A DNA stretch of 61,788 nucleotides, filler included, from Dugesia japonica (lineage: Eukaryota): NCBI GenBank assembly GCA_001938525.1. It is 6 parts of 6 records of this genome, joined end to end, with 100 filler letters (N's around TTAATTAATTAA, not from the genome) between each part and the next. Parts side by side here need not be neighbours in the genome. Positions count along the whole stretch, not along the records: positions 1 to 11,182 come from MQRL01435335.1; 5 more parts are not named here. One strand, 5' to 3'. The notes under the pieces were generated by a model. The model was given only the letters and a program-made list of their open reading frames with translations. It was not told where the DNA came from and made no database searches. Shown here piece by piece: positions 1-41,429 of this stretch. The translations under genes were made by a program, and so were the position numbers. The stretch's first letter is position 1; the number at the start of each line of letters is the position of its first letter.

Positions 1-634
1 TTAATTTTAAAATTCATTCGTGCCGGTCCGATGATCATGGATTTCATCGGCACCGTTGCACGTTTGAGCAGATCGGTTTTAAACAATTTATGTATCGGGT
101 GAGCTCCGTGCATTCTTAAAATAATCAATGCGTCGGGTGAACACCGCACAGAATAAACAGCAATAAATAATCTATGATGCCGAGTGAGCACCGGTATTTA
201 TATGCAGCAATTAAAATTTATATTGAATTACTATGAAAAAATATACACGTTCAAATTTGGACATATTAGAAGAATCTGCGAGTAAGCACCGCACGATTAA
301 ATGATTTTTTCTAAAAATTTGAAGAGCTGCCTACTGCAACTATCAAAAATTGACATTACAGTGCAGTATAAAAGAAAATACATCATCAAGCAAATCAGCA
401 TATTTATCGAGATATTTTTCTTAAAAACTCATTTGTAGCTCTAGCGTTCTAATAGTTAAAAGAATCTAGTAGTAGTGTTAATTTTATTTTAAAGCTATCA
501 TCAACAGATAATGGAGTAATTTTACTTATATTTATTAGATATGATGGGAAGACTGGGATGGTGTTCATCGTTGACTTGCAATGATGGACATCAGTGCTCA
601 GAGATCCGTATTTAATTTCTATGCGAGATTATCT

Positions 635-710
635 ACCATTGAAAGATTATAATGCTATGACGATTGAAAGATTATAATGATATGACCATTGAAGAATATA
701 ATGTTTATGA
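635..710 (+). repeat. ~25-bp tandem repeat x3 (AC(C/G)ATTGAAAGATTATAATG(C/A)TATG)
   Basis: Three adjacent imperfect copies read directly. Confidence 0.75.
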
Positions 711-1503
711 AAGCAGTTGTTAGATTATAACGATTATGAAAAATTTTTATAATAAAAGATGTCGTGAGGTGTTAATGAAAGATGATATGTGAAGAACGAG
801 AGAGGTTATGATGTTTAGTAAGAATGAAAGATGTGATGAGATGCTACGGTATCTTTGAGATGATGATGTAAAGTAAAGTAAGAGATATTATTGAGCATCC
901 ATATGGTATGGGAGATGTTAATATGTGACGAGAGTTGTGGTTGATGAAGTGAGCGTGTTATTTGAGTAATAATAGAAAGCAAATTGTGAGTAGAAGTTGA
1001 AGATCTTCATTGAATAAATTATGTAAATTGAAATGAACAAATAAGTGTTGGTGTTGAATCTTAGCCTATTTGAATATTGATTTATTATATGTTGTGTTAT
1101 AATATGTTTGCACAATTTATATGAAAATATTATTTGATTGATATTGATTAGTTTTATTGCAGAAAATTGTTAATGGAATAACGTTTTGATATTTAATTGA
1201 GCTGGCCGATGGATCAATANTTATTCGGAGGAGGATGGATCTCTCAGTTAACATATGATTATGAACAGGTACATGAAGATGAATTAACGAAGATCTCTTG
1301 AAATAGAATGTGACTGGATGGTTAACATGAATATAGATAGAGAATCCAACCTCATCCGCAATGACTATTGATCGTAAATCGGTCCAGAATAAACTTATAT
1401 ATTAATATTATTAATATTCTATATTAATAACATTAAATTATAATAAGTTAATATTCTTAAAGATTATTAGTAATGATATGAATTGTTAAAATTTTAAGAG
1501 TTA

Positions 1504-2046
1504 ATGCTAATATCTAGAATGTTCAAATCGCTGACGACGACAGTAGCCAATGAATCGTTAAAGCCAGAAGGGTGTTCCTTCTGGTCAAATATCATGAACA
1601 ACATGCCGAATTTGTGGGACTCAATTGGCGAGTATGGAACAGACCGTGATCTATGGTGGATCACTCAGGATTGCCTCCGGAAGAAGGACCAGGAGCTGTT
1701 AACTCTGAGAGAGAAATTAAATCGGCAGGAGGAAACACTACGACAGAAGGCCGAAATGTTGGAGGAATTGGATAAAAGAGTGGAACAGCGGGAGCAGCAC
1801 TACAACGATCAGCTAGCGGAGATCAGGAATAAACGACGGGGAAAAGAACTGATATCTTTGCTGATACGATCTACAGAAATGCGTCAATATCAACAGCGAG
1901 TAATCCAAAGTTTGCGTACTACTCAGCTTAAAACGGAAGAATTCAACAAGATGTCAGATCGGTTAAACATAAAAGCCGAAGCTATGTTACGACAAATTTT
2001 AATACCGCTCGATGGAACTATTGAAAACCAGGAAACTTTAGTGTGA
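1504..2046 (+). CDS. Intact 180-aa coiled-coil protein or exon inside the family A LTR
   Basis: Stop-free ORF, GC-richer than its flanks, with a heptad-like E/K/Q/R/L-rich core. Possible AG acceptor at 1516-1517. Confidence 0.6.
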   Translation: MLISRMFKSLTTTVANESLKPEGCSFWSNIMNNMPNLWDSIGEYGTDRDLWWITQDCLRKKDQELLTLREKLNRQEETLRQKAEMLEELDKRVEQREQHYNDQLAEIRNKRRGKELISLLIRSTEMRQYQQRVIQSLRTTQLKTEEFNKMSDRLNIKAEAMLRQILIPLDGTIENQETLV

Positions 2047-2308
2047 TTAATGTATGATCATTGTGTTAATCAGTAATACTGTTTAAACTCTAGTATTTTC
2101 ATGTCTTGATTATATTCAATGATAATGTGTTAAAATGAATCAACGGATTAGGAGGAGTTAAAAGAGAAATTCGTTTTAAATTTTTGTGAATTCCGATTTT
2201 AAATATATTTTTTTAAATATATTTTTTATAATATGCTGAATGATTTTATATTTGATAAGATAATTGTATAATTAAAGTTATGAATATTACATGTCGAATT
2301 ATTTCCAG

Positions 2309-2625
2309 TGACAGATACAAAGAAATTGACGAACACTTCAATCGTGAATATTCGAAGAAAGTAGGCTTCGTCACAAAAGAAACTGCAGCAAGAAATCGTA
2401 GAACTTCACCGAAAGAATGCTACGTAACGTGAAAAGAACACCAGATTACAGGATCGAGATCTGGCATTAGCTCAATCATGTCGGGCAATGGCGGACATTA
2501 TTAAATCGTATGCGGATCGGGAGAGCGTACTGATCGGGAGAGTGCGTACGCTCACACAAGCATCAAAATTTACGTCTGAAGTGGAAAAAGTAAAACCAAT
2601 GGATATCATTGAACTGGACGAATAA
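2309..2625 (+). pseudogene. Second coiled-coil exon in LTR (two in-frame stops)
   Basis: TTTCCAG acceptor. Frame reads ...KKLQQEIVELHRKN...AMADIIKSYADRESVLIGRVRTL...DE*, followed by AATAAA. Similar to FADVIRSLHDRENKLV at 32395-32604(-). Confidence 0.55.
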
Positions 2626-3046
2626 TCTTGACTGAAATAAAAGTTTTGTACAGCATGAATTTTGAATTTTCTTTGTTAATGTCGAGTAATGAAGTCTAAT
2701 AAATCAAAACGAGAACCGGATAGAAATTGAAATCTAAGACGGGATATAGCATATTCCTGCTGAATCCGGGAAAAGGGGGATTGTGTTACTAGAGAGAGTA
2801 ACATAAATTTCTGTGGTTGCTAGGTATCATTCCCCAGACAGAAAGATATTTGGAAGAGAAAGTTAATGCAATGAAGCGATTAGAAATAAAGATCAAAAGA
2901 AACAAGATATTAAAAACAACATCAAAAAGCCTAGCAACCCAACAGAAGTATTAAACCAAAATTTAATTACTAAAGAAAAATATAAGGTTTATAAAAATAA
3001 ATATATTCTATAAAGAAAATNNNNNNNNNNNNNNNNNNNNNNNNNN

Positions 3047-3716
3047 AAGAGTCTGATTTAAAAGTTGATTTAAAATTTCCAATAGAATTAAATTCAGACT
3101 ATGAAATGGCTTTATTATCTTTTAGTTGTTATAATATAATTTTTAATGTTACAAATAAAAATAATACTTTTGAACTCCTAAAAGTTGTAAGTGGAAGAGA
3201 ACTAAGTAATGATAAATTAATAACAATAAAACCAGGTGCTTATGAAATTAAAGAAATCTCTACTAAATTAATAGAACATGGAATTTAAATTTTTCCGGAT
3301 CTTTCAACAAACAAAATGTACTTTAACAACAAAACATTCTTTCAAGTTTAATAAAAAATCTTTTTTTCATACTATTTTAGGTTTTCTACCTAAGGAATAT
3401 TCACCAGGAAAATATTATTCTGAAAATAAAGTTGATATTCTAAATATTAATATACGATAAATATAACTTGTAATTTAGTTAAGGTAATTATATCAATAAT
3501 TCTCCAATGAATTTATTATATTCTTTTCCAGTAAATACCGTTGGTTTTGGTTATAAAATTATAGAAAAACCTTCTACACTAATTTATTCAAGATTAAATT
3601 CCAAATGTATTGATTCTTTAAAATTTAAAATTATAGATGAAAATAATAATCCAATTGATTTTGATGGAGAAACTATTTCTTCATTAGTTTATATTAGAAT
3701 ATGTATACAATCTTAG
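3047..3716 (+). pseudogene. Polinton/adintovirus minor capsid (penton) protein, frameshifted
   Basis: PIELNSDYEMALLSF, IKPGAYEI, and C-terminal LLYSFPVNTVGFGYKIIEKP...IIDENNNPIDFDGE, typical of Polinton minor capsid; lies next to the protease. Confidence 0.75.
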
Positions 3717-4050
3717 ATTTTCTAAAAACATTTGGGATAAATACTAAAACTAATTTTGATTTGTATTCTATTGCTAATTTTTTAAATCTTGAAATTGAGG
3801 TTTTAATGAAAGATGAATTAATTACAAAAGATAATAAATCAGTTGCGCGTGGCCGAATGATTATTAATTATCAAATTTCAAATCAAAAAGGAAGTCATTG
3901 GGTTGGTTTTCATAACGGTTATTATTTTGATTTTTATGGTTTAAAACCTTTTAAAGAAATTGAAAAACATGTAAAACAAAATTTGAGTTCAATCTTCTGA
4001 AACTAGTATTTGTGGAGTATTATGCTTATATTTCTTATATTCACTTTAAT
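3701..4050 (+). pseudogene. Polinton adenain-like cysteine protease
   Basis: IINYQ...GSHWV...YYFDFYG, then ETSICGVLCLYFL after a break. Confidence 0.8.
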
Positions 4051-4099
4051 TGAAGAGTTTTGATGACATTATTAATTAATTGTATATTACTTTAAATAA

Positions 4100-5350
4100 A
4101 TGAATAAATTGGGAGCTACTTTAAATAGTCAAAATAATACATAAAACATGTTTCTGCTAAAATAAAATTAGAATCTGTAAACAACGATAAAAGGTTGGTT
4201 AATGAAAGAGGAGATTCAATTACTTTTTTGAAAATTATTAATGATCCAGAAAATGAATTAGATGATATTAATTTAAAATATTTTAGTAAATTAGAAAAAC
4301 AAGTAAATGCACTGACACTAACAACGAGAAATCGAAATATTTATATTCACCAACTTTTGGAAAATAATAATCAATGGATTAAAACCAACAGTGATTTGAT
4401 ATATTAAAATAAATAAATTAATTGAGCTAACGCAAACGATAGGTGAATCTTTAATTTCTTTTAAAACTGATTTTAAAAATACACAAGTTAAAAATGAAAT
4501 CGAAAAGCTAATGGAAAAAATTGAAAAACTAACAAAAGAAATTAATAATTTATCTAGTAATTGTTTTCCTTAAAAATTTAAAAAAATTAATTTAGAATTG
4601 GAAAAGCTAAATTACAAAATAAATTTTAATAAACAAATGATTAACAATCATTTAATTCCTTTAGAACAAGAATATAATAAAATAAAAAATGATCTTCATG
4701 TTGATTGTGTTAAAGAAATTAATGATTGTATTGATAAGTTAAACAAACAAGCCTCATCTGACAAATTTAATGAACAAGATTTATTAAACAGGATTAAAGA
4801 AATAATTATCAATTATTTTCCATGTCTTGTTTCAAAAAATTATGAAAAGTATAATAATGTAATAATATTTTTATTAACTACTTTAATTACAAAGAATGAC
4901 ACCAGCGGGTTCCCACTACCAAGTTATTATGGTTTATTATCGCCATTTAAAATAAAAAGAAAATGAATTTTAAGTAGTCCACTCCCAAACACAAACAAAT
5001 ATTATTACCTTGAAAAACCATTTGAACTTTATTTTGGTTTAAATAGAGAAAAAGATAAGTCTTATTTTATAATTCAAGGTTATTGTGATATTTCATTTTT
5101 TGAAATTTATGTAATGATTGATAACATTCCAAAAATATTTAAATACAATTTTATTAAAAAACAAGAATTTACTTTTTTATAGAATACAAAGAAATTCTAT
5201 TAACCGATAAATATAACTTTTAAAGAAATTGAAACTTAATTTTTTAATAGAGTTACTTTAACTTTACCTAAAAATATTTATATTTATAAAATTATCATTT
5301 TAAAATCATATTCTGAATTATCCCAAAGGGTTTCATCCCAACGGGGCTCC
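4100..5350 (+). pseudogene. Degraded Polinton accessory ORFs (unknown, partly coiled-coil)
   Basis: Collinear broken ORFs (4195-4407, 4598-4966) between the protease and the next ORF; no motif recognised. Confidence 0.4.
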
Positions 5351-5379
5351 CTTTAAACCCAAATTATTACTAAAATAAA

Positions 5380-5966
5380 ATGTCTGAGCAAATATTGGGA
5401 GAATAGTTAAATGAAAATGAAGGCGAAGGTAAAAATCTATATCCAGATATAAATAAATATATTTACAAAGATCAAAAATACACTATTCAAGATCTAAAGA
5501 CTAAATTATCAAATTTAAGAATAGTAGATTTCGAATCTGATTAGTTACTTCGATTAGATTTAAAGAAATATTTATAGGAACAATTGTTGGAATAACTGAA
5601 ACAGTTTTAATTTCTTAAGGAACTTTTAGAATTGGTGGAGTTGTCAGTGGATTAGTTTCCATAATTTTAACTACATCAGTTTCCTGTATTCCAGTAATTT
5701 GAATTTTAAATACATCATTAATAAAGTCTAAAATGAAGAAGTATAAACATTTAATTCATGAATTGGAAACTATTAAAAATAAATTATTTTTATTTCACCA
5801 GAAAGGCTTATCAGATGACATTTTAACTGATGAAGAAATTTCAATAAGCAAGAATATGGTTAAACAAGTTAAAGATTTAATTTCACATGAAAATAAAAAA
5901 GAAGTTAAATATAATAATGATATTGTAAAAAACTTGAAAATCAAATTGAAAATCAACAAAAAGTAA
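5380..5966 (+). pseudogene. Polinton/adintovirus-type transmembrane + coiled-coil ORF
   Basis: NLYPDI start, a hydrophobic G/S/V/I stretch (IGGVVSGLVSIILTTSVSC), then KKYKHLIHEL...KGLSDDILTDEE; layout recalled from other Polintons. Confidence 0.5.
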
Positions 5967-6092
5967 TTAATAAATTAAAAAAATAGTCTTACGCGTAAGT
6001 TGCTTTTGTTTTTTGAAATCTTATATATTTACATTTTAACAAAAGCGAATTGCAGTTCGCTATTTTTATATTAAAATACAATTTAATTTTTG

Positions 6093-9000
6093 TTATAATT
6101 TATCTAGTTTTAAATGCCACTGATTACAAATTTCACATTTAAACTTATTTACATGGGACCAAGTTCTTACACCATTATCTTCTATTAATCTTTTATCATC
6201 ATAACCTGTTAATGCAATTTTCTTTTGCTAACCAACACAATTTCATGTTTATTCGATTTTAAACTATAGTTGGTTCCATATACTTTTTCTTTTGTATTTA
6301 AAGCTTTATCAAATTCTTTCATCCCTATCTCATTAAATTTAGAAACACCTTTATGTCTTTTGTCTATTTTTATATTATGGGGCCCTCTGGGATCTCGATC
6401 AGTAAACTCATAATCATAACTTTTTTCTTTTATGAAATTACATTTAGTTATTTCATTATTTAGTTTTTCATCTTTCATTTGAAATAAATTATTACCTAAT
6501 AAACTTTCTACTTGTGTTAAATTATTTCTACTATAATGAATTTTGTATTTATTTGGAATGTTTACATCTAATTGATTATAAATAAAATCATAAATTACTT
6601 CTTTGACATATTCTAAAATAGTAAAACCTATGTACGGGAATTTATTATATTTTAATTTTGATTGTCTCAAATGTATTGCTGCTATTTCTGCTCACATGAG
6701 ACCCTCGGGGATTCGCTCGCGACTGGAAGGAGCTTCTCCTGTTTTTGTACATGTAAATATTTTACTATATTTGAAATTAATTTTTGATGCAAACCTTTGA
6801 TAGTCTTTATCTGTGCCAACTATTTTTACATTACATCTTTTTCTTATGTCTTCTAATGTTTTTCCATAAAATGCATTTTTTAATAATTTAAAGAAATAAT
6901 TTCCAAATACATCGTTTGTTTTTTAGATGTGTTTCTTTGATCAATATTAAATTGTATATAATCTTTTAACCAAGATTTTGTTAGAAGGATATATTTAGAA
7001 TGTATTTTTTTAATTTTCATTCCTAAAAAATGTAAAAATCTAATGTACTTCCTAAAACAATATAATTTTGTTTATCAAATTTATTTAATGGTTATTTAAT
7101 ATTTTTCTTAGATAAACTTTTTTGAAAGCTTAATTGATATGGTCCTAACATTTCTTCAGTTATATTTATTCTATATGAAGCTAATGGAAAGTATTTTGTC
7201 TTTTCGTGTATTTCTTGTGGATATTCTAAATCAACTTCATAAATATAATTAATTTCAGGAGTTGATTTTCTATATAATAAATTATTTGCTTCAACTATTT
7301 CTCCTGTAGGTAAAGGTTTTGTCATACAGGATGCATATAGACTGTTTTCATCTAAATATTTTATAAACATATCTTCAAAGTATTCATCTGGAATTGTTTT
7401 TCCTTCTTTCTTCTTTCCTTAAATATTCTTTTTCTGCTTGATTTATTTTTTAATCACTATTTTTATTATTGTTATGATTAAAAACTTGTCTTTCACCACA
7501 AACACCTGAATATCCTCCTCTAACTTCTCTTTCTATTTTTAGGAATATGTTGTAAGTATCTTCTGGTGAATATTTTAATTTTTGTTTTGTGAATTTCATA
7601 CTTGCATTCCAAGTTACACCTGGAGCTGAATAACAATAGCTTGGATCTATTTGATAATTATTTAAACAAATCTCTCTGAAATTTTTGAAGAAATCAGCTA
7701 AAATAATTACATCTAATTTCATGTAATACATCTTGTAATCAAATAAATTTCCAAATTGATTAAAGTCTTGTAAAAATTTATTGTAATCATTTTCTGTTAT
7801 TTTTTGTGGTTTTAGTTTATTATTAAAATCTTCTTTTGTAGGGTATATTTTCTGATTTTAATAAATTATTACTTGATTAATATTTTCTCCTGTAACATAT
7901 TCATATGGAAATGAAATTTTCTTTGGCGCAAGATTAAATTATCTTAAATGATTATATTTTCTTGATTGATTCAATAATTTACCAATAGTATCAATCGATG
8001 TAAATGGACACATTCTTGAAGAATCTAAAAATCTAATTTTTCTAAATTCAAAGGAAATGTACACTTCATCAGTATGAAGAATTATTCTTTTTACTTCTGT
8101 TGGACATTTTGTTAATAATTCTTTGAAAAATAAATGATTTTCATAACCTGGAGCATTGTGAAAATAATTCTTTTATTGATTTATGTTGTAAATTACGATT
8201 TGAATGAGCATAACCTCTGAATTCCCCATTAAAGTGATCATGATCAATAACTAGATTTGCAGTTATTAATTTATTACAATACCTACATTTTAGGTGAGCT
8301 TGCTCACATTCATTGTTAGGAATAATTTGAGGGTGAGTAAACTCTCCCTTATAATATTCAATTAATTTATTTTCTTTTATATCAATTAATTTATTATTAA
8401 TTTCTTCTAAAAATTTAAAGAATTGTTGATGAATGTTATCTCCATAAAATTCTTTATATTCATTTTGAATTAAATGTTGATATTTACTTTTGATGTAAAT
8501 TCCTAGAGAAAATGATTTTTGTTTTTTGGTTTTAATATCTGTCCAACTTTCAAAATCACCATAAATTACAAATGGTAATTCATTTAAGAAATAATTATTT
8601 TTAAATGAATAATATTTATCATTTTCAAAATTTACTTTAGATGAATCATGGTTAATACATTCTTTTTGATGATTAATTAATATAGTTTTACTTCTATATG
8701 AATTCATACAACATAAACATAGATGATTTTTATGTTTATTAGTATTTACAAAAACACCAACATTTCTACATAAAATATAATGAGCTTTGTAAAATAATAA
8801 ATTACATTTATTTATTTCTGGTTTAGGATTACTATCATAATGAAAAATATATACAAGATAGATTTTAGCAGAGTTTGTTACTTGAAAAACATTTACTTTA
8901 AAATCATTTAATTTTTCAAATATTTTTACATCATCAATACTTGCAGGAAAATTCATTTGGTTTATTTTTAATTCATTTAAATAAGGAATATATTTTGAAA

Positions 9001-9600
9001 CTCTAGTTGGTTGATCTTCAAATAAATGTTTATAAGTTAAAATTGAATAAAGAAAACAAAAATCATCTTTATTTTTAATATTAATTACACCTGGTTTAAT
9101 AAAAGGTAATTTTTTATATGATGACTCAACTAATTATTGCTATTTTGAAAGTTCAATTTTATAATCAACAATAAAATCTAAATTCCATCCACTTTCATAT
9201 TTTTGTCTTCATCTTCCATGTATCTTTGAAGTTGATTTAATAACTCTTCGACAATAATTTTTACATAACTTTTGATAGTAATTCTGTCATTATTTGAATA
9301 TGAATGAAATATTCTTTCTTCATCTTCTTTAAAGTAATTACAATTTACACTCAAACGTAATATCAAATTTTTTGAATAATCAAAATAAATATCAACAATT
9401 TTAGTAATTTCTTTTTTAAACCAGGTTATTAATTTAAAATTNNNNNNNNNNNNNNNNNNNNNNNNNNNNNNNNNNNNNNNNNNNNNNNNNNNNATTTTAT
9501 AATACTTTATATTTTTTAAATGTTTAAATAATTTTCGAGTTTCATTCTTTTCAAAATCAATTGCTTCATCTCCAGGTAATTCATCAAATAATATTTTAGT
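6093..9600 (-). pseudogene. polB: Protein-primed family B DNA polymerase (Polinton pPolB), many frameshifts
   Basis: Motifs IYGDFES, DHDHFNGEFRGYAH (EndoVII-like), KLDVIILADFF, YLDENSLYASCM, KNAFYGKT, YIGFTILE, YDDKR. The YxDTDS region appears deleted. Confidence 0.92.
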
Positions 9601-9650
9601 TTCTTCTTCTTACAATTTTAAAACGCTCTTGGTGTACTCCACTATTAAAA

Positions 9651-9860
9651 TGTGATTATGAGGAAATAATTATTATTTAATATTTTTGAGCCAATAGAAT
9701 TTGAGTTAATTCTGAATAAAGAGGTTTAAAATATTATTCAATAATCATTTCTCTCATTAAGGATAGTTTGTAGTAGTAAAATAAAAAATTTCTAACAATA
9801 TGAATTCTGTTTTGCAAAATGAATTAACAATTAAAGATTTACCTTACATGATAGCAGCGG
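9651..9860 (+). mobile_element. Probable short Gypsy 5' LTR (TG...TTACA, ending 9848) plus degenerate tRNA-iMet primer-binding site
   Basis: TTACA followed directly by TGATAGCAGCG (cf. TGGTAGCAGAG) just upstream of gag. The LTR start is uncertain. Confidence 0.45.
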
Positions 9861-11182
9861 TAAATACCGATTCTATTACTGAGAGGTTATCACCAAAGAT
9901 ATTCTGCAGAGGAGATGATATTGAAAAATTTAGTAAAAGGTGTGAATTGTATTGTGAAGCTAAAAACATCACTCATGTGAAACAACAAGAGAGATTAGTC
10001 TCTTATTTGTTAGATGACGATTTGTTAAAAGAATATACAGACGTTGAAAAACGTTGAAGGTTTTCAGGATCGTTTACGTATAGCATTTGAGAAAAAGAAA
10101 GATGCTATCAAAGATTTTCAAAATTTGATAAACTTCAGGCGTGGAAATGAAGAGATTCAAGTTTATTTTAGAAATGTAAAAGATTTAGTAAAAAGATTAT
10201 TTACAAATAAAGATTTTACTGAAGAAAATATGGTTGCAAAGATAAAAGAAAAGTTGAAGAAAAAGTGACTTTGTGGAAACGAGAGAATATAGAAAAAATT
10301 GAAGAAACAATGGCTTTAGTAGATCGAGTAGAGAAAAACATATATCGAGTTGATGTGGTTAGAAGTTACGCGAGAGTCGCAAATCGAAATTTATCAGAAA
10401 CCTGTAAATCATACAATGAATATACATGTGGATCAAAGAAAGGAAAAACAAAAGTAAAAAAATATCGAATGTTGGTTATTTCATAAGATCGGTCATACTA
10501 AAGCTAATTGTTCGACAAAAAAGTGGTAGAGTGCTGGAGTTGTCATAAAACAGGACACATAAGTCGAGATTGTCCAAATAAAAAACCAACTAAATGTTTT
10601 GGTTGTGGAAAGATTGGCCATATTAGAAAGTTATGTCAAGAAGTGAGGTGTAAACTATATGGTAATGGTGGATATAGAGCAGAAGAGTGCTGCACAAATT
10701 TGAAAATGAAAAAAGAAGAAAAATTTATGACTACAAAAAGATCAAGAAACCGATATAATCGAATAAATGTGATTGAAGATGCAGATGTCAATACAAAAGA
10801 TAGATATGAGGAAGTATATGAAAGTGATTTCGAATAGCAATTTCCAAAAGGCAGAGCTCTACCAGTAGAGGAATTGGTTGGAGCCATCCATTGTTAAATG
10901 AAGTTAGTAATTATCCTAAAAGAGTCGAAAAGTAGGATGATATCAGAAAAGTTACAGAAAAAGTATACAGATTCTTAAAGAGAGAAAAGTTTGCAGATGA
11001 TAGAAAAGTAGAATGGGTTAGAACAGTTGAAGCAGAAAAGAAAAAAAATATTTCATACCATAAATTGCAAGGCAGACCACGTGTTACAGTCTCAATTCAA
11101 GGGAAAATAGTAGAATGTCTATTAGATACAGGGGCTCGAATTAACGTGATCAGTTTGAGTTGTTTTAATAAACTACGAGAAG
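9861..11182 (+). pseudogene. gag: Gypsy gag (up to four CCHC knuckles) and aspartic protease, truncated by contig end
   Basis: CWSCHKTGHISRDC and CFGCGKIGHIRKLC plus two degenerate knuckles; protease VECLLDTGARINVIS at about 11110-11160. Confidence 0.88.
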
Positions 11183-11282
11183 NNNNNNNNNNNNNNNNNN
11201 NNNNNNNNNNNNNNNNNNNNNNNNNNTTAATTAATTAANNNNNNNNNNNNNNNNNNNNNNNNNNNNNNNNNNNNNNNNNNNN
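11183..11282. other. Artificial contig spacer (44N-TTAATTAATTAA-44N)
   Basis: An identical 100-nt construct occurs five times; the 12-mer has stops in all six frames. Confidence 0.95.
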
Positions 11283-18214: not shown

Positions 18215-18255
18215 TTAAGTAATATTATTTTAAATAAATAGAATTTAAATAAATA

Positions 18256-19886
18256 ATGTTAATTCAACCAAACAAAGAAGCACGAAAGATATTAGTATCT
18301 AATAGACGAGCTTTCATGGCCGACGATTGGAATATTGGATGTACTATGCTCATGAAGCATAAAATAATAACGAAAGAAGAGCCAATCAATATAAGACCAT
18401 GGCGTCATCCGATGAACTTAGATGACGAAATTGAAAAAACACTACAGAACTTAGATGAGAACGGCATCATCAGGAAATGTAATTCAAGATGGAATATGCC
18501 ACTAGTTTGTATATGGAATAAAGAAAACAAAAGGCTGAGATTATGTTTAGACTTTCGCCAGCTGAACCAAATATTGGAGAGACATGCATATTCAATGTCA
18601 AGCACAGTGGAACTGCTAGATAGGTTAAATGGAGCCCGTTTTTTCAACACAATTGACATAGGCAATACATATTATCAGGTTAAATTGGAGGAATCATCAC
18701 AGGAAGAAATAGCGTTCTCAACCAAAAAAAAGGTCAATACTGTTTCACGAGAATGCCATTCGGAATTGCAGCAGCGCCATGTGCATTTCAGGAATTGATG
18801 ACAAATGTACTGGGAACCACACCTGGAGCAATGGTGTGTATGGATGATATTTTAATTTAATCCGATAATGCCACGGACCACTTCAAAACACTGGACACTG
18901 TGCTGAAAGAAGTATGAAAAGCTTGATTACGTATCAATCCCAAGAAATGCAGTCTCCTGCGGAAAGAGGTAAAGTTTCTAGGACATATCTTAGACGAAAT
19001 CGGCTTACCAATAGATCCTACAAAAATAGAAAGTATACAGAACTTCGAGAAGCTAAAATTTACAAAACAAGTCAGAAGCTTTCTAGGTATGCGTAACTAA
19101 TACTGAAAATTCATCAAGGAATATTCTGCAAAAGCCAAAGCATTAGAACAATTATGTGGCAGAAACAAAAGACAGGCTAATATGGTCACCCATATGCAAC
19201 GAGGCATTTCAAGAATTGAAACTGGCTTTAATAAAAACACCAGTGTTAAGTTTTCCAGACAGAAATAAAGATTTCATATTAGACACTGATGCAAGTTTTA
19301 ACAGCATTGGGGCTGTGCTATCACAACTGGATGAGAACGGTCGAGAAAGAATTATCGCGTATGGGTCCCATGCAATGAACGCGTATGAAAAAGGATATTG
19401 TATAACCAGGAAAGAATTGTTGGTAATATACTACTTTTGTAATAGTTTCCGACATTATCTAAACAGTAGATGATTCATCCTACGAACTGATCATAAGGCG
19501 ATAACCTTCAAGATAAAGACAAAGAAACCAATAACAGCGCAGTTTCAGAACTAGATAAAATACTAAAGTAGTTTGGATATGGATATTCAATACAGAAAAG
19601 GAGAAGGACATTCCAATGCGGACATGCTATCCAGAATGGAGTGTAAAATTTTTGTACAATGTGAAATGCAGCATAAAGAAACGATGACAGGTAAGATTAA
19701 AACACAAAGATTGTGTACGAAGACAACGGATACGGAGTTCAAATGGCAGAAGGATAATGTTGAAATAAAGAATATAAAAAGAGACATCAACGACAGAAGA
19801 AATTCAGAATTTATAATAAAAAAGGGATAGTCTGAACAAAAAGCGACAAAATATGGATTCCAAAAGAGAAACGATCAAAATGGATG
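18256..19886 (+). pseudogene. pol: Gypsy pol: RT, RNase H and start of the integrase region
   Basis: RLCLDFRQLN, RMPFGIAAAP, MDDILI, FLGHI, FILDTDASFNSIGAVLSQ, RTDHKA, HSNADMLSR; several frameshifts and stops. Confidence 0.93.
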
Positions 19887-30932: not shown

Positions 30933-31032
30933 NNNNNNNNNNNNNNNNNNNNNNNNNNNNNNNNNNNNNNNNNNNNTTAATTAATTAANNNNNNNNNNNN
31001 NNNNNNNNNNNNNNNNNNNNNNNNNNNNNNNN
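30933..31032. other. Artificial contig spacer
   Basis: 44N-TTAATTAATTAA-44N. Confidence 0.95.
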
Positions 31033-31390
31033 TATAAGAACCCCCATGACCGCAACGCCGGGGTGTTCCCGGATTATACTAATTTATCGGAGGTAGAGGC
31101 CGAAAATGAAAGAGAATGGGACGCAGCCGAGCGGCGTGCGTATTATGAGTGCACTGGCCCAGTCAGATCCCGAGAAGTGTTTCACACAGCCACAGCGTTT
31201 TCCCCAATCAGTACCGAGAAATTTAGCACCATCAGTGACTGGAGGGAAAGCCCGTCAGTAATCCCAGTCTCGGCGGCTCATGTTCCACCTTTCGCTGTCT
31301 TGAGAGGATCAATCGGCGACACGGTATGGGATCTACGTAATTCATGGAGTAGGGCTCACAACGAAAAAGTACAGAAAATGTTAGAGGCAA
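31033..31390 (+). CDS. GC-rich open coding fragment, unknown (only the first ~110 codons of ORF 31063-31599 look real)
   Basis: Roughly half-GC open frame that drops abruptly into AT-rich sequence at about 31390. Confidence 0.35.
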
Positions 31391-31934
31391 TTTTTTTTCT
31401 TCTTTCTTTCCATATTTCCGGTTTACCTATCGCAAATTTTTATTTTCTATACCAAGTGTTTCACCTCAACAGTATTATATTAAAATTAATTCTTGAAATA
31501 TTTTTAAAAATTATTTACAATATTTTATTTTTTAAAAAAGTATATAAAATATTTAAAAATAGAATACATTTTTGTCGAAGTACTTTATTGAAAATTTAAA
31601 TTAGTTTAAATAATTTTTATATTGTATTGTATAAAAATTATTTTTAACAAAAATATCTTTTAAATTATAATATTTTTTGAAATACTTGGGTTGGGGTTCC
31701 ATCTGAGTTGCAGATAGAAAAATATGACTGAGGAAAAAGACAGCCCTAAGAGGATCCCGCAAAGAATTTAACCTAATGTCCCTGATTTAGGCCTTCAGTG
31801 CAGATTCGTTGACTCCCAACGTTGATTTGGAGTGCCTACTCGTACACCTTTCATTTGGGATCGAGAGTTTCCTACTATATTTAAATATACGGAGACAAAG
31901 ACATAATTTATAAACATTTATTTACAAAACATTA

Positions 31935-32262
31935 TTAGACACTGGGCTGGCTCGTCATTTGAAAAGTCAATTGCGGCCTCATCATTGTCACTGTTCCAAG
32001 GAGACCAGCTTTCTATTTAGAGTCGCGCAGACAAATCCGCTATGTACTGTTTAAGAAAAGTGACCTAATTAGACAGCTGCAGGTTCGTCCAGTTAACTAT
32101 TTCTAATTATTTCTTGTTCACCAATTCGAGCTTTTTTATAAGCCGATTCTGTTAGGAAAGGAGTCGTAGTGACCGCTAGCACCTTTTCCAGTAGTGCCTC
32201 TCTATTATGAACTTTATCAATTTATGACGTCGTGGTGAATTTGGTAGTCCGACTCTTGGCAC
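31935..32262 (-). pseudogene. Coiled-coil terminal exon, homolog of 40833-41144
   Basis: QNRLIKKLE...FLKQYIADLSARL*IESWSPWNSD versus RNRLIKKLD...FLQQYIADLANRLEQENWTHWNSE; same TAG|TG acceptor. Confidence 0.75.
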
Positions 32263-32394
32263 TAGATATAAGAATATCAATTAAAAAACAATATATGAAA
32301 ACAAATAAAGCTATTTTAAGCAAAACACAAAATTAAAACTATTTAGAAATTTAAAACACAAGTTAGTTCCTAGTTTGTCTGGTTTTGTCGATCA

Positions 32395-32614
32395 TTAGCG
32401 CAACTCCACGAAATCAGTTACAAGTTTATTTTCACGATCATGGAGGGAACGGATTACATCAGCGAACGATTCAAGCTGGCGCTTCCAGATGCGTTCTTGT
32501 TTATGCGATGCTTCCGCTTCATCTATGCCTATAAAGACTGAATTTGACTCTCCGCCACCACTTGGGGCTCCCAATTCCGTTTGACCAGACGGTAGAGGTC
32601 CCAAGAAATGTCAA
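32395..32614 (-). CDS. Coiled-coil exon related to 2309-2625
   Basis: QLESFADVIRSLHDRENKLV versus SCRAMADIIKSYADRESVLI. Confidence 0.45.
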
Positions 32615-35600
32615 NNNNNNNNNNNNNNNNNNNNNNNNNNNNNNNNNNNNNNNNNNNNNNNNNNNNNNNNNNNNNNNCTGAATAGATGATTTATAGGACA
32701 AGTTATTAGAAATTATTATATCAAACTTAATTAAGATGATGATAGAAAACCTAAGGCGAACATAAGCATTTAATAAAAAGACTCAACAATTTAATTATAC
32801 TAAGAATTTATTACAAAACAACTAATCTAAATAAGTCACGAGGGGATGTCACTGGAGAATTAAAATAATTTTCTAACTCTAACCACAGGTGAAGATGGAG
32901 AGTTTAAAGTGGGCTTTTACGTTAGGCCAGTTACGATATAACCAGCGCTTGGATTCATCGCGGCCACGCTGGTGGTCTGCTTCAGAAGAGACCAAATTCG
33001 ATCGAAGAAGAAGTTTACCTTTAAAACCATTGGACAAGGTTTTACGCTGTGATTTGGCGAAGTGGTTATCAGAAAATTATTTATGTGAGCGAACAATTTT
33101 TATCAGACGAGAAGTGTTTTTCCTTGATAAACCAGATGACTAGAGAATACATTCAAACAAATCGGAAGTCATTTATCGTCCATGGCAACAGAAAAACATA
33201 TTGTGGTATGGGCCATGGTTCTGCCAAATTGTCTCTTATCTTGTCCAATGGTTTTAGTGGTAAACTTTTTCTTATTTTCTTGTACCTCATGCCTTATTGT
33301 TTAGGGGAACATGGAATTGTAAATCGTGAAACTTGAATATTGCACGTATTAATAAATTTCTTACAATTTACCTTCCGTCGATTGTCCTTCAGATAACATA
33401 TTTCCACTTTCAACCTTAACTTATAGGCAGCATTTAATTAAGGTTTCGGTCCTCTTTTCATTGACTTTGTTATAAATCTTTTTCGGCAAATACTAATAAC
33501 ACAATTCCTAGATATTTTGGTTTTTTCAGAAATTCTTGTGTAACTCCAACCTTCCTTTCGTAAATAAAAATTTGATTTTTTGATCCTCAGCCTTCATAAC
33601 TACATTATACATGAATTATAAATAAAAAATCCAAATGCAATAAGAACTTAAATTTATTTCAAATATTATACTGTTGTCAATAAATTTGCTCTTTTGAAAA
33701 AAGTATAATTGAATATTTAACCAAATAATAAATTGTTTAACTTAAAAATTATTTCAATAATTAATACTTTGCATAAACATACTTTTTTTAATTAAAAAGT
33801 TAATGTATTTCTAAAAATAACTAATTTCAAGTGTTGTCGAAAAATTTGCTCATCAGTATATTAAAGAGAATGAACGCCAATAAATCTAGTAAATCTAAAC
33901 AAGGAGTTAAACCATAGGTGATATACCATTTTAGTTGTTCTACTGACAAACTCGATTTTCAGTCATTGATGAGATTAACCACTCAACAAAAAATTTTTGG
34001 TTATCACCACTACTGACTAGATTGATCTTATCGAGTTGTTTGTTGGCTAATTACATACATTTTTCTATCTAACTACATTGATGAAATTCAAGCAGGTAGG
34101 TTTTGATCATGAATCAGTTTTACTGCCTGTTTATGGAAGTTAAATAAGGCACACTGCCGCTGGATATAATGCTCAATCGTTTACTTGCGAAATCTTACTG
34201 CAGATCAAGAAAAATTTGTNGATGAAAAACTACTGATAGTTAATCGAATGTCAATAATGGCAGTTGGCAGTTCACTAAGAATATGCGGAGAATATGTGGA
34301 GTGAATCTCTATTTCTGGTTATAATTATTTGACAGAATTTGATAGAAAGTAAAAACTAGGATATTATCATTGTGAGCAGTTTTGAAAAGCAAGTTGAAAT
34401 TTTTGTGTGATTGGTGATCTTATTTTTAAAATCTTTTGTTTAAANNNNNNNNNNNNNNNNNNNNNNNNNNNNNNNNNNNNNNNNNNNNNNNNTTAAGGAT
34501 AAATTAAAATTATTGAATAATAAAGTTTAACTTTTTAATAAATAAAATTTTGAAAGTGAGCTGAGATTTTGTCGTCAATTTTTAAATAAAACTTTAAGTA
34601 AATAATAAAATGTTTTCAAGTGGATCAAATTAATTTTGATAAATAAAATTTTAAAAGCAGTTAAAATTTAGTTGTAAATTTTTAAATGGAAATTATTAAA
34701 ATAAATAAAATGTTTTAAGTGGATCAAATTAATTTTAATAAATNNNNNNNNNNNNNNNNNNNNNNNNNNNNNNNNNNNNNNNNNNNNNNNNNNNNNNNNN
34801 NNNNNNNNNNNNNNNNNNNNNNNNNNNNNNNNNNNNNNNNNNNNNNNNNNNNNNNNNNNNNNNNNNNNNNNNNNNNNNNNNNNNNNNNNNNNNNNNNNNN
34901 NNNNNNNNNNNNNNNNNNNNNAGTTTTGATTTTAATAAAGTGTTGTAATGAATTCGAATTTTGATATTGATGATACGACGAGTTTTCCAAACTCAACTAA
35001 CAATCATCATATAAATTTTATTAATCAGAAATACATGCAAAAATTATATCATCAATGACTCAAAAGTTACTAAATGATTAATTTGGATTTCTGCAACGGC
35101 AAGATTTATTGTTAACGAAACACTGGTAATTTCTTTTATTCGGATAAATTGAGTCCACTGATCGATAATATTAATTCCTCTTTAACTGTTATAGTTGAGA
35201 TTTAATTAACGCAAGTTGACTGATTTATCTTAGTTGTTTTTTAAGGGTGAAATCATCTAAAATTTAGGGGGTTTTATACCATTTTACCTTGCACCCTTGG
35301 TTGATTTTGACTGGTTCGTATTTTTAAATCTGGTTTCCACCGTTTGTATTATTCCATAGTATAATTTTCAGATTTTTCTGTAAATTTCATATGTTCTATT
35401 GGTGGCTATTTTTAGACACCTTCTGAATTTTTTCTTTGTTTTCGCTTTATCAAAGGTCTCTCATTGCTCCGATCTTTACAACCTTTTCCCGACCCTTATG
35501 GTTATGGTAATTTTCTTGACCAGATCGGATTCCTCATGCTCTCATCTATCCAGATTTACTTTCCTTGACTTATTCTATCTTTCTGATGAAAGTTGCCGCT

Positions 35601-36729
35601 TTTTCATATTTTCTACGAATTAAATTTCTTTTTTCTTGAAAATTAGTTAATTTTTTCTTATTATTCCCTGTTTCAATTTTAATAATATTTTATATTATTC
35701 AGGTATATTTTATAATTCTTTTTAATTATTGTTTATTGCCCATTACCCTCAGCATTGTCTTTTATTATTTTCTTGATAATTTTTCGTATTTTCTTCTGAT
35801 CTTCAATATTTTTCCTCTTGTTGAATACTTACTGATGATACTTCCGAGATTTATCCTGATTACTATTAACTGAGGCTTCTTAATTTTATTGATATTTCAG
35901 GCTTTGGTTGATCCTTACTTCGTGGGCCGGTGTTTCATCCCAACATTTATATTACTGATTTTTTAAAATAGTAAAAATTAATTGGAAAATTATTTTGAAG
36001 GATTATTAAAAAAATATAGTACATTTATTATTTTTGAAAATCCATATTTTTAAATATAAATTTTAAGTTCTCTGATATGGATTATTTGTTTAAATATGAT
36101 GGATTATTCTTACATCTTTTTAACTTTTATAAAACAATTGTGATAATAAATAAAACTTATGGAAAATTGTGAAGTTCTCAATTTAACTAATGTTGTGGTC
36201 ATGGGTGATATGGTTCAAAATTATATCAAACACAACTCGCAACTGGGATTTAGTGTGCCCGTCTTATGAGTACGTTGATAGTAGCCCCGGCGACTCTTAC
36301 CCAAGAGTGCTTGAGCGTACCATCTGCATATTATTTGGGTTCGTTTGACAACGATAGAAGTCGTATAAAGGAGAAAAATCAATAATTTACGATCATAATA
36401 TTTTACAGTGGAATTTACAATCCATGTATACAACGTTTATTCGATAGATTAACAAATCAGTCATCCTCGGAAAGATCGACAAATACTTTCCAGATTTTTT
36501 TTGGGGNGGGAGGTACTGAGGAGTTATGTAGGTTATGTAGGAGCTCACTTAGTTGATTGTTTTCAGTTCGGAGCCACTCCACTTCGGCTTCCAACTCCAA
36601 GATTCCAATACCCTAGGCTGTGTCCCTCTAGATATATTCAACATTTTGACCTCGACGTTGAAACATCTCGAAAACGAGTATGCCTATTTTTTCTTGAACA
36701 TTAGTTTGATTGAATTGAATGATGGTACT

Positions 36730-37249
36730 AGTAAGTTTAATCGTCAATGATAATAGTATAATATTATAAATATTATAATAGTAATAATTAATGTGTAACA
36801 ATAATAACGATAGAAATGGTCGTTATAAGAGTGCTGGAATTAATAATAATAATCTAATGGTCGTTTTAATAATATTGATGACGGTCGAGAAGATAAAAGT
36901 AATAATAACCTTAGAACTAATACTTATAATACTAATGATGATCCAAGCCGTAACAACTAACAACAATAACACTAATACCCCTAATAAATAATAGTAATAA
37001 TTGTAACAATAATGATTTAAATAATACTAATAATGACAAAATAATAGTTTTGATAGTCCTAATAGTAGTAATATATGGTAATGATAAAAGCGATTATCGA
37101 AGTGACCCTCGCTTAAAAATAATGACATCAATTAATAATAATTAAGAATAATATTGATTAAAGGTAAAAATAATGATGTAATAGCAACGACAATAGTAAT
37201 ATAATATTAATAATAATAAGAGTAATAATAATAAAAGTAGTAATAATAG
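36730..37249. repeat. Degenerate (AAT)n low-complexity tract
   Basis: AAT/AGT/GAT triplets. Confidence 0.7.
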
Positions 37250-38894
37250 TGATGGGCTAGAACATAAACAATCCCGATAATAGTTGTAACAAATAAATCA
37301 AGTAAATTAAAGAAAAGCAAGGAAAATAAATTAAATTGCAGGAATTATCGTGAAAAGAGAATAAAAATATAAAACATCGGTCGAAATGATGATTAAAATA
37401 ACAAATTATGAGGTGCTGGGCCAGCAATTATGATTAAGATTATGATTATTATTATGTAATTATTATTATTATAAATATTATGAATTTTTTTTGGAAAACT
37501 TCGAAAATCGAAAATCGGGCGTAAGAAACCCTAAATTAATACAGAAATAAAATATTAATTAATATATTGAAATATTAATTTTTATACAGAAATAAAAATT
37601 ATAAGTATGAGTAGTAAATGAAAGGTTAAATAAAAACAATAATAAACAATAATTTAATAATATATTAGAAGTGTCTTTACGACCCGTTTTATTTCTTATA
37701 AATAATGCTAAATAGCGTTTAATATTAATTATTCTTTTAATTAATGCTGATCAAGTAATCAGTCCCTGTCTAGCTGAGAAAAAATAAATTGAAAATAATC
37801 AGCAAAACAGTTGAATCATCTCATGCTAGACAAGGACTTTGTAACGAAAACATCCGGTTATTCAGAGGTCAGGTGAGGTGAACGACTGAATAATCTGGAA
37901 AATTGCGAGTTGTTATGTTAATTACCACCATACCTAACCAGGANNNNNNNNNNNNNNNNNNNNNNNNNNNNNNNNNNNNNNNNNNNNNNNNNNNNNNNNN
38001 NNNNNNNNNNNNNNNNNNNCAGCAGTTCATTCGATTCATTTTTGGGCATCGGTCGAATAAAAACAGAAAAACACTACAGAAAAAAAACTTTTCACTTTTT
38101 TGATTAAAAATTTACTAAGTTTTGAACCACATTTTAAATTACTGCCTGATTGAGATTTTACTTGGTTTCGAGCAACATATATTATTTTTTTAAATATTAT
38201 TTGATTTGAAATGTTTACTTATTTGAGAAAATAATATCCGAGGAGAAATTCCAGAAAATAAATTACAAGTAAATCTTTGATTGTTATCATGTTCCTTTCT
38301 TGTTTGATGTAGTATGGTGTCTTATAATTTAATTTTGTTTAGTTTAAATCTGATAATAAACTTATTAAGATCATGATATTTTAATTAATTTTGTTTATTC
38401 ATTTATTTATTATTTGATTTTTGAAGTAAATAATCATTAATCAACTTATCAATTAAGTATTAATTTTATCGTGAAGTAAAAGAAACCGAGACTTCATTTT
38501 GTAAAAGTTTCATATGATCATTACATGATCATTATTCTATCATCGAATATTTAGATATAAATAAATAGTTATTGTTGTTGAGAGAGTATTTTTGTGTTCT
38601 AGTTTTGTATTATCAGTTTTATTTTGTGTATAAGCTGTGATAATGAGAATTGAGATGGTAGAAGTACTGAGCAGGGTATAAAAATCACGTGCCAGGATAG
38701 AGAACTTCATTGTAAAGACGCGAAACCACATAGTCGCGCTGAATCCGCGGAAAAGAGGGACATGTCACAGAGGTGACACAAATGCTTGTGGTTTTTAGGT
38801 GTGCCCCTAGACATTACGGTGAGATATTAAATATGAAAGTGAGATCCGAGTTATAGAGAAAAAATTAAAAGATCAAAATCCTAAAAACCCAACA
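37250..38894 (+). mobile_element. Solo LTR, family A, 4-bp TSD ATAG
   Basis: TGATGGGCTAGAACA...CCTAAAAACCCAACA; ATAG at 37246-37249 and 38895-38898; collinear blocks shared with 59794-61652. Confidence 0.85.
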
Positions 38895-40023: not shown

Positions 40024-41429
40024 TGTTGGGATGAAACACTCAATCAAAATTGAAGAGGAATATTTACGGGGTAATTGAATTCCCCAACGAGAAAACTCTA
40101 CTATCATCAGGAGAGTCTAGAAAAAGTTTTGAAGATTCAGCCAATAGTAGACCAGAAAATAAAGAAAAAACAAAGGCATGGAAACACGAGGTGTCCTAAA
40201 AATAGGCAGCAATAAAGCAGCTGAAAATCATGAAAATCTTTAGAATCGAATCGGCACCAATAAGAAGTAAAGATGACAAAATAAAAAAAAGCCGACCAAC
40301 TGGAAAGTAGCGGTGATGCACGTGAAAAGCTATATAAGCTCGTCAAAATTAAGTGCAAAAACCAACTAAAAAACTAAAATATTCAAGTTTTAACTACTTT
40401 ATTTTGATCATCAGATTGTTGAAAAGAAAATTCCCGTTCACTTTTGGACAAAAAGAGAATAAATTACCGTAATACCTTAATCATTTTTGACTTGAATTAT
40501 ATCTTATAAAAGGAGAAACTACGTCAATTAACTCGTTATCACATCGTTCAGAGAAAACCGGAAACCAACCTGTTGAAGAAATCCGTAACAAGAATATTTG
40601 AAAGAAATTATTATAATTTTATTTTCGATGCGGTTGATATGTTATGTTATAATAAATATTTAATGGATAAAAGGACTTACCTGATTTAGCTTGCTAAAAG
40701 TAAATGCATTTAAAAAAGAAAAACACATACAATTCATAGTAAATTTTATTCTATTTCTATTAAAATTATTTTAAATTTATTCTATTAAAAATAAACTATT
40801 TAAATTAATTCTTAATTATTTACTTCTTTGTAGTGTCTAGAATTCGCCCACCATCAAGTCTCCGCCGTTGTCACCACCTCATACAAAAATTGTTACGTGA
40901 ACGTCACATCAAGCGACAAAATGAACGTGCTCTCCTGCGTCACCTTACACAGCGGAATCGTCTAATAAAAAAATTAGATAAAAAACAGGGAGAGTTGGCA
41001 GAACACACCAATCAAAACCTGACCTATAAAATTGAATTCTTGCAACAGTATATAGCTGATCTGGCAAACCGCCTTGAACAAGAAAACTGGACCCACTGGA
41101 ACAGCGAGACCTTCAATTTTATGAATGGTGAGCCCACCCAGTAGTTAGACCCTGGTGCTCTAGACTTTATGTGAATAATGAAAAATAAACCTTAATATCA
41201 GTTTATTCTTAATTTGTTTGATAAAGTAATTAATAGGGAAATGATGAACCCAAAATAAAGGTGTACGAGTGAGCACTTCAAGTAAGCGTTGGAAGTCAAC
41301 CACTCTACACCGAAAGCTTAATTAGGGACGCTAGGAAAATTATGGGACGGGTGTACCCTGAGGGGTGTCTTTTACCCCAGCTATACTTTTCACTATCTCC
41401 TTTTACTAGACTCAGGTAAGACCCCAACA
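40024..41429 (+). mobile_element. Solo LTR, family B (internally deleted), 4-bp TSD ATTT
   Basis: TGTTGGGATGAAAC...GACCCCAACA; ATTT at 40020-40023 and 41430-41433. Confidence 0.85.
40833..41144 (+). CDS. Intact coiled-coil terminal exon within the solo LTR
   Basis: TTCTTTGTAG acceptor, 103 open codons, AATAAA near 41184; diverged homolog at 31935-32262. Confidence 0.7.
   Translation: MSRIRPPSSLRRCHHLIQKLLRERHIKRQNERALLRHLTQRNRLIKKLDKKQGELAEHTNQNLTYKIEFLQQYIADLANRLEQENWTHWNSETFNFMNGEPTQ

Follow-up and report, generated by a model that had tools for sequence, protein, structure and literature searches.

Accessory genes inside the long terminal repeats of Burro-like Gypsy elements of the planarian Dugesia japonica, probably read as alternative last exons

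Results

A damaged end-repeat of a giant retrovirus-like element

The window analysed in this work is a stretch of 61,788 nucleotides of Dugesia japonica DNA (assembly GCA_001938525.1), in which positions 1-11182 correspond to one contig of an AT-rich genome assembled as 854 Mb in 648,594 contigs. The DNA flagged in this contig belongs to a giant retrovirus-like element, a Burro-like Gypsy, and represents a damaged copy of its end-repeat (long terminal repeat, LTR) of 4-5 kb. Planarian genomes are full of Burro-like elements, which count among the largest retrotransposons. Features located in the window are presented in Table 1. An element end at the CCCAACA motif that finishes at 2944 had been proposed in a previous sequence-only reading of this DNA, and the end was confirmed as sharp, with flanks that differ among copies. 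The 5' end of this LTR, assigned to family A, lies beyond the contig, and the copy is either a solo LTR or a 3' LTR.

Table 1. Features of LTR families A and B in the window.
Feature	Position	Strand	Details
Family-A LTR, 3' part	1..2944	+	Copies align from 1 to 2944 and diverge beyond; no primer site behind 2944
Short conserved block	541..610	+	Ends at a donor-like site; present in the window, L124 and L128; similar block in family D
Leader exon (inferred)	1163..1388	+	Ends in A at a GT donor in other copies; donor missing in the window
ORF1 (A1), 175 aa	1519..2046	+	Own ATG behind acceptor; dN/dS 0.17 between subfamilies
Exon 2 (A2), about 105 aa	2309..2625	+	One long helix with ADIIKSYADRE motif; begins with TG directly behind acceptor AG; dN/dS 0.14
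AATAAA	2636..2641	+	10 bases behind the exon-2 stop
LTR 3' end, predicted long-range stem	2813..2944	+	Stem closes at the terminus, ending CCCAACA (fold)
Family-B further LTR exon, remains (B0)	30985..31599	+	phmmer match 31030-31374
Decayed family-B LTR	31690..35945	-	B1 remains (32395-32520 in frame); exon C 31942-32262; 5' end TGTTGGGATGAAACAC at 35945
Family-B solo LTR, internally deleted	40024..41429	+	4-bp target duplication ATTT; intact exon C 40833-41144

Full-length family-A LTR units start with TGTTGG, finish with CCCAACA and measure 2.6-4.9 kb; their 4-bp target duplications are exact in L128 and L134 and carry one mismatch in L124. They show the terminal TG...CA repeat with short target duplication of a Ty3/Gypsy LTR element. 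Counted over the genome, 5' ends matching 19 bases exactly numbered 464, and 3' ends at least 732 (14-base terminus match). Behind 5 of the first 100 A 3' ends listed, a shared flank was found that contains a primer site, and 40 such junctions are present genome-wide. The site consists of 18 bases starting 7 bases out from the LTR end, and its complement matches the 3' end of partial host tRNA-Pro-like sequences with anticodons CGG and TGG; ARAGORN called a whole tRNA gene in none of six primer-matching loci. A primer-site search allowing 0-5 bases before TGG returned only 5 unrelated flanks and missed the site because it begins 7 bases out. About 95% of the LTR ends have unique flanks, and therefore most copies are solo LTRs or 3' LTRs.

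A Gag protein with three CCHC knuckles is encoded 1.8 kb behind an A-type LTR end in L237, and the combination of retrotrans_gag domain and CCHC knuckles was found in this locus and in L292. Relatives of this Gag continue into a long polyprotein that includes a ubiquitin-like stretch, a Monjiviricetes fusion glycoprotein (PF24664, E 3e-23), reverse transcriptase (RT) and RNase H. Gag, RT and RNase H were recognized by Pfam in related contigs and a protease-like motif by eye, with no single contig spanning the A-type element. The Env protein was detected solely on contigs that are linked to D-type LTRs and encode a Gag with about 50% identity to that of the A type; three of these (L283-L285) display the order gag, env, pol, in frames broken by decay. 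The A-type contigs share the upstream polyprotein but stop before env, and family A may also have an Env. An RA-like domain gave only a weak Pfam match in related contigs (E 0.04), no BIR, ankyrin or MATH domain was detected among 18 element fragments scanned, and one element fragment compared with PDB sequences showed no BCL2 match.

A short terminal inverted repeat, the 4-bp duplication, the mostly unique flanks and the absence of a polypurine tract directly before the 3' LTR at 87 internal/3'-LTR junctions would also suit a non-autonomous Ginger-type DNA transposon, which has TGT ends and a 4-bp duplication. Such an origin is hardly credible, as a primer site and Gag follow the 3' end and pol-bearing internal sequence precedes the 5' end. 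What stands at the 87 junctions is a pyrimidine-rich sequence mirroring the primer-site junction, with purine-rich runs 35-55 bases upstream. At these sites (L401-L448) the internal region before the 3' LTR closes with a small hairpin and, after it, a nearly perfect reverse-complemented copy of the junction between LTR end and primer site; among 47 distinct junctions read, 10 were A-type and 36 D-type. This arrangement could allow both ends of the genomic RNA to pair, or could indicate an unusual priming of the plus strand.

Other sequences were observed in the window. Near-palindromic GTGAGCACCG motifs are repeated upstream of the family-A genes (window 99-290; also in L124 and L128). Positions 3048-9600 contain decayed Polinton/adintovirus-like remains, with pieces of a protein-primed DNA polymerase (PF03175, E 9e-6) and, on the minus strand, an endonuclease VII-like motif. 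Other ordinary Gypsy fragments, with gag zinc knuckle, protease, RT and RNase H-like frames, occupy 9785-11238 and 18253-19830.

Two separate genes in the family-A LTR

The order of elements in family A is leader exon, ORF1, about 200-260 bases, exon 2, about 320 bases and LTR end. The short conserved block farther upstream, with its donor-like end, is possibly a small additional exon. The acceptor of the leader exon is conserved among copies. The base preceding the leader donor was examined in 34 copies and was A in 25, C in 3 and G in 1, with no donor in the remaining 5 (window included); the three copies with C belong to one subfamily and have a different phase. Five of the 25 A-donor copies carry an in-frame stop just upstream of the donor, and therefore an ATG made at the junction would have to initiate translation. 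A conserved frame of about 25-30 codons with silent-site variation was observed in the leader exon (about 1200-1260) and at the homologous places of L257, L256 and L132; this frame, open in some subfamilies, is possibly a further micro-gene.

ORF1 consists of a 43-residue motif region, which contains WDSI-x-x-YGTD-x-D-x-WWI, followed by one long helix. The unbroken coiled-coil ORF of 180 aa that had been read at this place does exist as a stop-free frame of 180 codons (1504-2043), but the conserved start is the ATG at 1519 and the protein has 175 aa; this ATG lies one base behind the acceptor (AG-A-ATG) in 42 of 55 distinct copies. The second coiled-coil segment had been described as a second exon. 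Its ADIIKSYADRE motif is indeed present (about 2488-2520), but in the window the frame is broken by in-frame stops at 2362 and 2425, and it is a separate gene. ORF1 and exon 2 each have their own conserved stop, and therefore they constitute two genes and not two exons of one protein. A single protein made of ORF1 plus exon 2 was considered and rejected, since the ORF1 stop is conserved and the donor-like site at the end of ORF1 is out of phase. In L098 and L110, a DNA deletion has fused the N-terminal motif of ORF1 and exon 2 into one open reading frame.

Unlike ORF1, exon 2 and three exons of the sister families described below (B1, C and D2) begin with TG directly behind the acceptor AG, as was found in 34/35 copies of A2, 26/33 of B1, 41/53 of C and 33/36 of D2. 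Only 3 of the 87 four-fold degenerate columns in these four genes keep G at 85% or more; the four-fold columns drift while the G of the start codon is kept, and therefore the first codon fits methionine and not valine. An AATAAA signal within 70 bases behind the stop was also enriched when compared with a control window (A2, 27/36 vs 3; B0, 8/11 vs 1; B1, 33/38 vs 4; C, 28/41 vs 12; D2, 21/28 vs 0), with no enrichment behind the stops of ORF1 (7/60 vs 8) and D1 (1/23 vs 2). In all these counts of exon starts, donors and AATAAA signals the copies are related, which overstates their independence, but they span subfamilies that are saturated at silent sites.

The folds predicted for the ORF1 and exon-2 proteins are single long helices. 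No curated Pfam match was obtained for ORF1, exon 2, B1 or C, and a word-indexed protein search yielded nothing for ORF1 (99-315 aa) or for the B1 alignment (56-210 aa). The ESM Atlas gave only generic coiled-coil clusters, with recognition below threshold, and a metagenome scan gave two loci, both chance matches in GC-rich bacterial-type DNA; a scan of viral contigs gave no match. Relatives of both A genes are present in sequencing data of other organisms: P0002-P0004 (164-171 aa) share the N-terminal motif of ORF1 with E values from 9e-9 to 4e-7, and P0007-P0009 (83-100 aa) share the exon-2 motif with E values from 2e-13 to 1e-7. Two further matches in the ORF1 search were generic coiled coils. 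P0002 and P0009 each originate from a contig of 1742 bases, which is possibly one and the same.

Selection between subfamilies and decay of single copies

A count of copies had been suggested for the coiled-coil segments, and all four segments searched proved to be high-copy, with at least 150 matches each and first-look candidates numbering 4140 for ORF1, 4765 for exon 2, 8162 for B1 and 10876 for C. ORF1 is stop-free in 34 of the 150 matches listed, and therefore one intact ORF is unremarkable. The copy nearest to that of the window differs by dN 0.02 and dS 0.09. The alignments comprised copies with at least 60-80% coverage and at most two stops or unknown residues, and frameshifted copies and saturated pairs were left out of the dN/dS calculation, in which the ratio fell with distance from 0.33-0.63 in close pairs to 0.08-0.20 at dS >1 (A1 0.17, A2 0.14, B1 0.14, C 0.08, D2 0.10 and D1 0.20, the last from 2 pairs). 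Private changes of A1 were near neutral (114 silent, 481 replacement and 43 stop), and the corresponding figures for shared changes were 214, 193 and 1; across the genes, shared changes were mostly silent or balanced and private ones included stops.

These results reveal purifying selection on the genes in replicating lineages and decay after insertion. The window copy is neither young nor selected, and the earlier proposal that its intact ORF reflects youth or selection was not borne out, given the stop-free copies listed, the dS to the nearest copy, the broken exon 2 and the missing donor. The flagged copy is a relic and not a domesticated gene. Host exons captured without any role in the element form one alternative with the Ginger-type transposon, and are likewise hardly credible, since selection is seen between subfamilies and not on single copies and there is no match to any named host protein. 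Exon 2 is deleted in 21 of 30 close copies spanning the region, with the same joint in the DNA-like run X1, and therefore one lineage has spread without exon 2.

Sister families with similar gene rows

Families B and D are sister families of A. Family B has 2049 ends, with the same primer site behind 2 of 100 ends listed, and its 5' termini are near-identical to those of family A; the full-length A and B LTRs display no DNA similarity. Its LTR contains at least four exons, each with a stop: one exon with its own ATG, recognized by eye in L386 and L374, and then B0, B1 and C. In family D and in the L288 family, an ORF with its own ATG is followed by an exon-2 homolog at the same place as in family A, and 4-bp target duplications were found in 4 of 6 full-length D copies. 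The window contains two family-D LTRs without exons (59794-61650 and about 36900-38894), of a repeat family ending AAAACCCAACA. In a fifth LTR family (L325) the exons have been lost. No reliable likeness was detected among ORF1, C and D1.

The homology between A2 and the D-family exon (D2) may be regarded as certain from their profile match (E 2.5e-16). The case of the family-B exon is more difficult. It had been proposed that the segment ADVIRSLHDRE at 32395-32604 on the minus strand resembles the exon-2 motif; the motif is there, but this B copy is frameshifted and only 32395-32520 of the 69-aa frame is in the coding frame. Within the window, a plain tblastn of the A/B pair gave E 0.39. In ungapped scoring the pair ranked above all 2000 residue shuffles and above 1996 of the 2000 that preserve heptads, ranks given before allowing for the previous selection of this pair. 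At the family level, the Trp anchor and the motif fall on one ungapped diagonal of 67 columns between A2 and B1, which was equalled by 1 (column), 5 (heptad) and 68 (block) of 2000 shuffles; D2 aligns in this register as well. A profile made from A2, D2 and outside relatives, with B1 left out, was run over 394 loci and 2.4 million residues; its hits of 5 bits or more were 21 B1 copies, 1 D1 and 5 others, with none from A1 or C. In the A2 and B1 families, and in the distant relatives, it is the motif that shows the strongest conservation.

The genes could still be real and the likeness between A2 and B a chance match of charged helices, the exons of family B having been gained independently. 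This is consistent with several results: the hhalign comparison of A2 and B1 gave E 0.001-0.002 and a probability of only 13-24%; the decoy pair A2 vs D1 gave E 0.0003-0.0009; reversed decoys reached 35.0 in ungapped scoring vs 33.3 for A2/B1; and an internal coiled-coil ORF scored 10.3 bits on the A2 profile vs 13.4 for the best B1. Family D was considered as a bridge and did not join A2 to B1, D2 vs B1 alone being without significance (381 of 2000 heptad shuffles reach the score). Against a chance match stand the diagonal rarely equalled by shuffles, its common register in D2, the copies ranked by the B1-free profile and the hhalign score, which was reached by none of 60 shuffles of either kind, and we regard it as rather unlikely. 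Homology of A2 to the family-B exon is probable, not proven, and a single ancestral LTR gene is the probable source of the A and B exons. The likeness exceeds shuffled controls, but coiled-coil decoys come close.

The 3' ends of families A and B differ, as had been noted, and the difference lies inside the terminal CCCAACA. The idea that the LTR-embedded genes predate the split of the families is supported by the homologous exons at the same place in A, D and L288, by the 5' termini and primer site shared by A and B, and by the relatives found elsewhere. An exchange between families had been offered as the other option, and a recent one is not supported: the LTRs lack DNA similarity and the protein identity between A and B is about 24%.

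RNA reads

Three RNA runs provided 7, 70 and 18 reads on the window copy (at least 82% likeness), almost none of them on either ORF and with a peak at 2728-2828, near the 3' end; in this mapping one subfamily per locus and a quarter or less of each run were covered. At the locus containing B and D exons (L374), D2 and B1 showed a depth of few reads in two of four runs and no joint at the acceptors. The expression check that had been proposed gave sparse reads and no splice joint. A strong RNA peak at L374 3817-5300 was rejected as expression of LTR genes, as it belongs to an unrelated Gypsy insertion; the LTR and gag fragment of this insertion (L374:3620-5327) reach a depth of up to about 100 in two poly(A) RNA runs. 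Burro1 is silenced by SMEDWI-2 in wild-type animals, according to the accessible part of the corresponding report (PMC8532177), and such silencing would fit the low RNA level.

Discussion

A model for expression of the LTR genes

The Burro-like LTR appears to carry its own accessory genes, selected in active lineages, and the layout described above makes it likely that they are alternative last exons and that the ATG of exon 2 is made by splicing. Transcription would start in the first 0.7-1 kb of the LTR, and with such a promoter the genes would belong to R/U5 and form part of the 5' leader of the genomic RNA. Of 7 B LTRs, 5 have a CCAAT motif and a TATA-like box ahead of the gene row, four of them between +601 and +668 and a deleted copy at +309; a TATA candidate was located in 2 of 5 A LTRs and none consistently in D. 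The leader exon would be joined to one of several acceptors, use of the first leading to ORF1 and its skipping to exon 2. The final A of the leader and the initial TG of the exon would form the ATG of exon 2 and likely those of B1, C and D2; an A-ending donor was identified in family A and none in families B and D. In Drosophila gypsy, env is reported to gain its start codon by splicing. If the later exons obtain their ATG only at the joint, they would be untranslatable from unspliced RNA. Short RNAs would end at the AATAAA behind the last exon used. Once inserted, the copies decay. In its widest form, with up to four mutually exclusive last exons in a transcribed LTR sharing one leader, each of the thousands of solo LTRs as a self-contained splice-switched cassette and at least two of the protein families old enough to be present in other organisms, the model falls slightly short of an even chance in our estimation.

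U3 is the usual site of LTR-overlapping ORFs in retroviruses, and the genes could be located there and read from the 3' LTR via a donor in the 5' leader or internal region, as in nef or MMTV sag, so that TG would complete a codon of an upstream coding exon. The RNA reads peaking near the 3' end of the window copy are in favour of a U3 location. It is considered improbable, as in family B the CCAAT and TATA boxes are conserved upstream of the gene row, an AATAAA after every exon would truncate the genomic RNA ahead of R, exons unrelated to one another need not all begin with TG if the codon were internal, and five copies have in-frame stops before the donor.

The spacing of the row, in which ORF, stop and AATAAA are followed by a gap of 150-260 bases, an acceptor and the next ORF, is that of trans-spliced operons, and flatworm spliced leaders end in AUG. 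An operon-like row resolved by spliced-leader trans-splicing, with the terminal AUG of the leader as start, is nonetheless very unlikely, since A2, B1, C and D2 open with two bases, so that an AUG placed before them by the leader would not be in their frame, and family A has a conserved cis donor ending in A.

Under the model of alternative last exons joined to a cis leader, the genomic RNA must pass all the splice and poly(A) signals, and therefore a regulator would be required. The small, putatively oligomeric helix proteins produced from the short RNAs would be natural candidates. We tentatively suggest that they act in trans, letting the full-length RNA pass these signals unprocessed, by analogy with CERV for Cer1 and Rev for HIV, and the spread of the lineage without exon 2 speaks for an action in trans.

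Comparison with known systems

The planarian Burro/GYPSM1 is a giant Gypsy-like element, for which the available part of its description reports extra polyprotein domains and an upstream accessory ORF (PMC6431247). The elements analysed here resemble it in their multi-kb LTRs, thousands of copies, a Gag with retrotrans_gag and three CCHC knuckles and a long polyprotein in which gag and pol are separated by a mononegavirus-like fusion protein, here on D-linked contigs; they differ in the genes inside the LTR, which do not figure in that part of the Burro description (PMC6431247). The GAG-ENV-POL errantiviruses of Platyhelminthes, Nematoda and Bryozoa have the gene order of the D-linked contigs, with an HSV/gB-type Env, the domain here being PF24664, but LTR-encoded genes are not included in the portion of their description available (PMC13524379).

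Accessory ORFs upstream of gag, sORF1 and sORF2, have been described in the MDG1 group of Drosophila (412, Mdg1, Blood and Stalker), where they are unspliced and sORF2 is a membrane fusogen; according to the accessible part of this work, a short RNA is terminated by an early poly(A) site behind the first ORF and the full-length RNA reads through, as proposed here (PMC11952523). In contrast, the ORFs of the present elements lie in the LTR and have splice acceptors; every solo LTR receives a copy of them, and their proteins look like soluble helices. CERV of C. elegans Cer1 is a spliced, zipper-bearing accessory protein required for export of the unspliced genomic RNA of a Gypsy element, and it may, together with HIV Rev, be taken as the best functional model for the LTR genes; the likeness would be one of function, and CERV differs in having 517 aa and in being made, in the part of the report available, from gag-frame exons and an ORF behind pol (PMC10309623).

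Outside the Burro genome paper (Grohme 2018) and its extended data, the literature search found nothing on genes inside Burro-like LTRs or on the role of multi-kb LTRs. New in this work are the direct link of primer site and Gag, the selection in three families, the proposed alternative-last-exon layout and the putative split start codon. If the model is true, these elements would resemble complex retroviruses in their organisation, having small regulatory proteins as well as a splice/poly(A) switch between short and genomic RNA. There would then be named candidate proteins for how the long genomic RNA escapes early processing, and solo LTRs may still supply proteins in trans.
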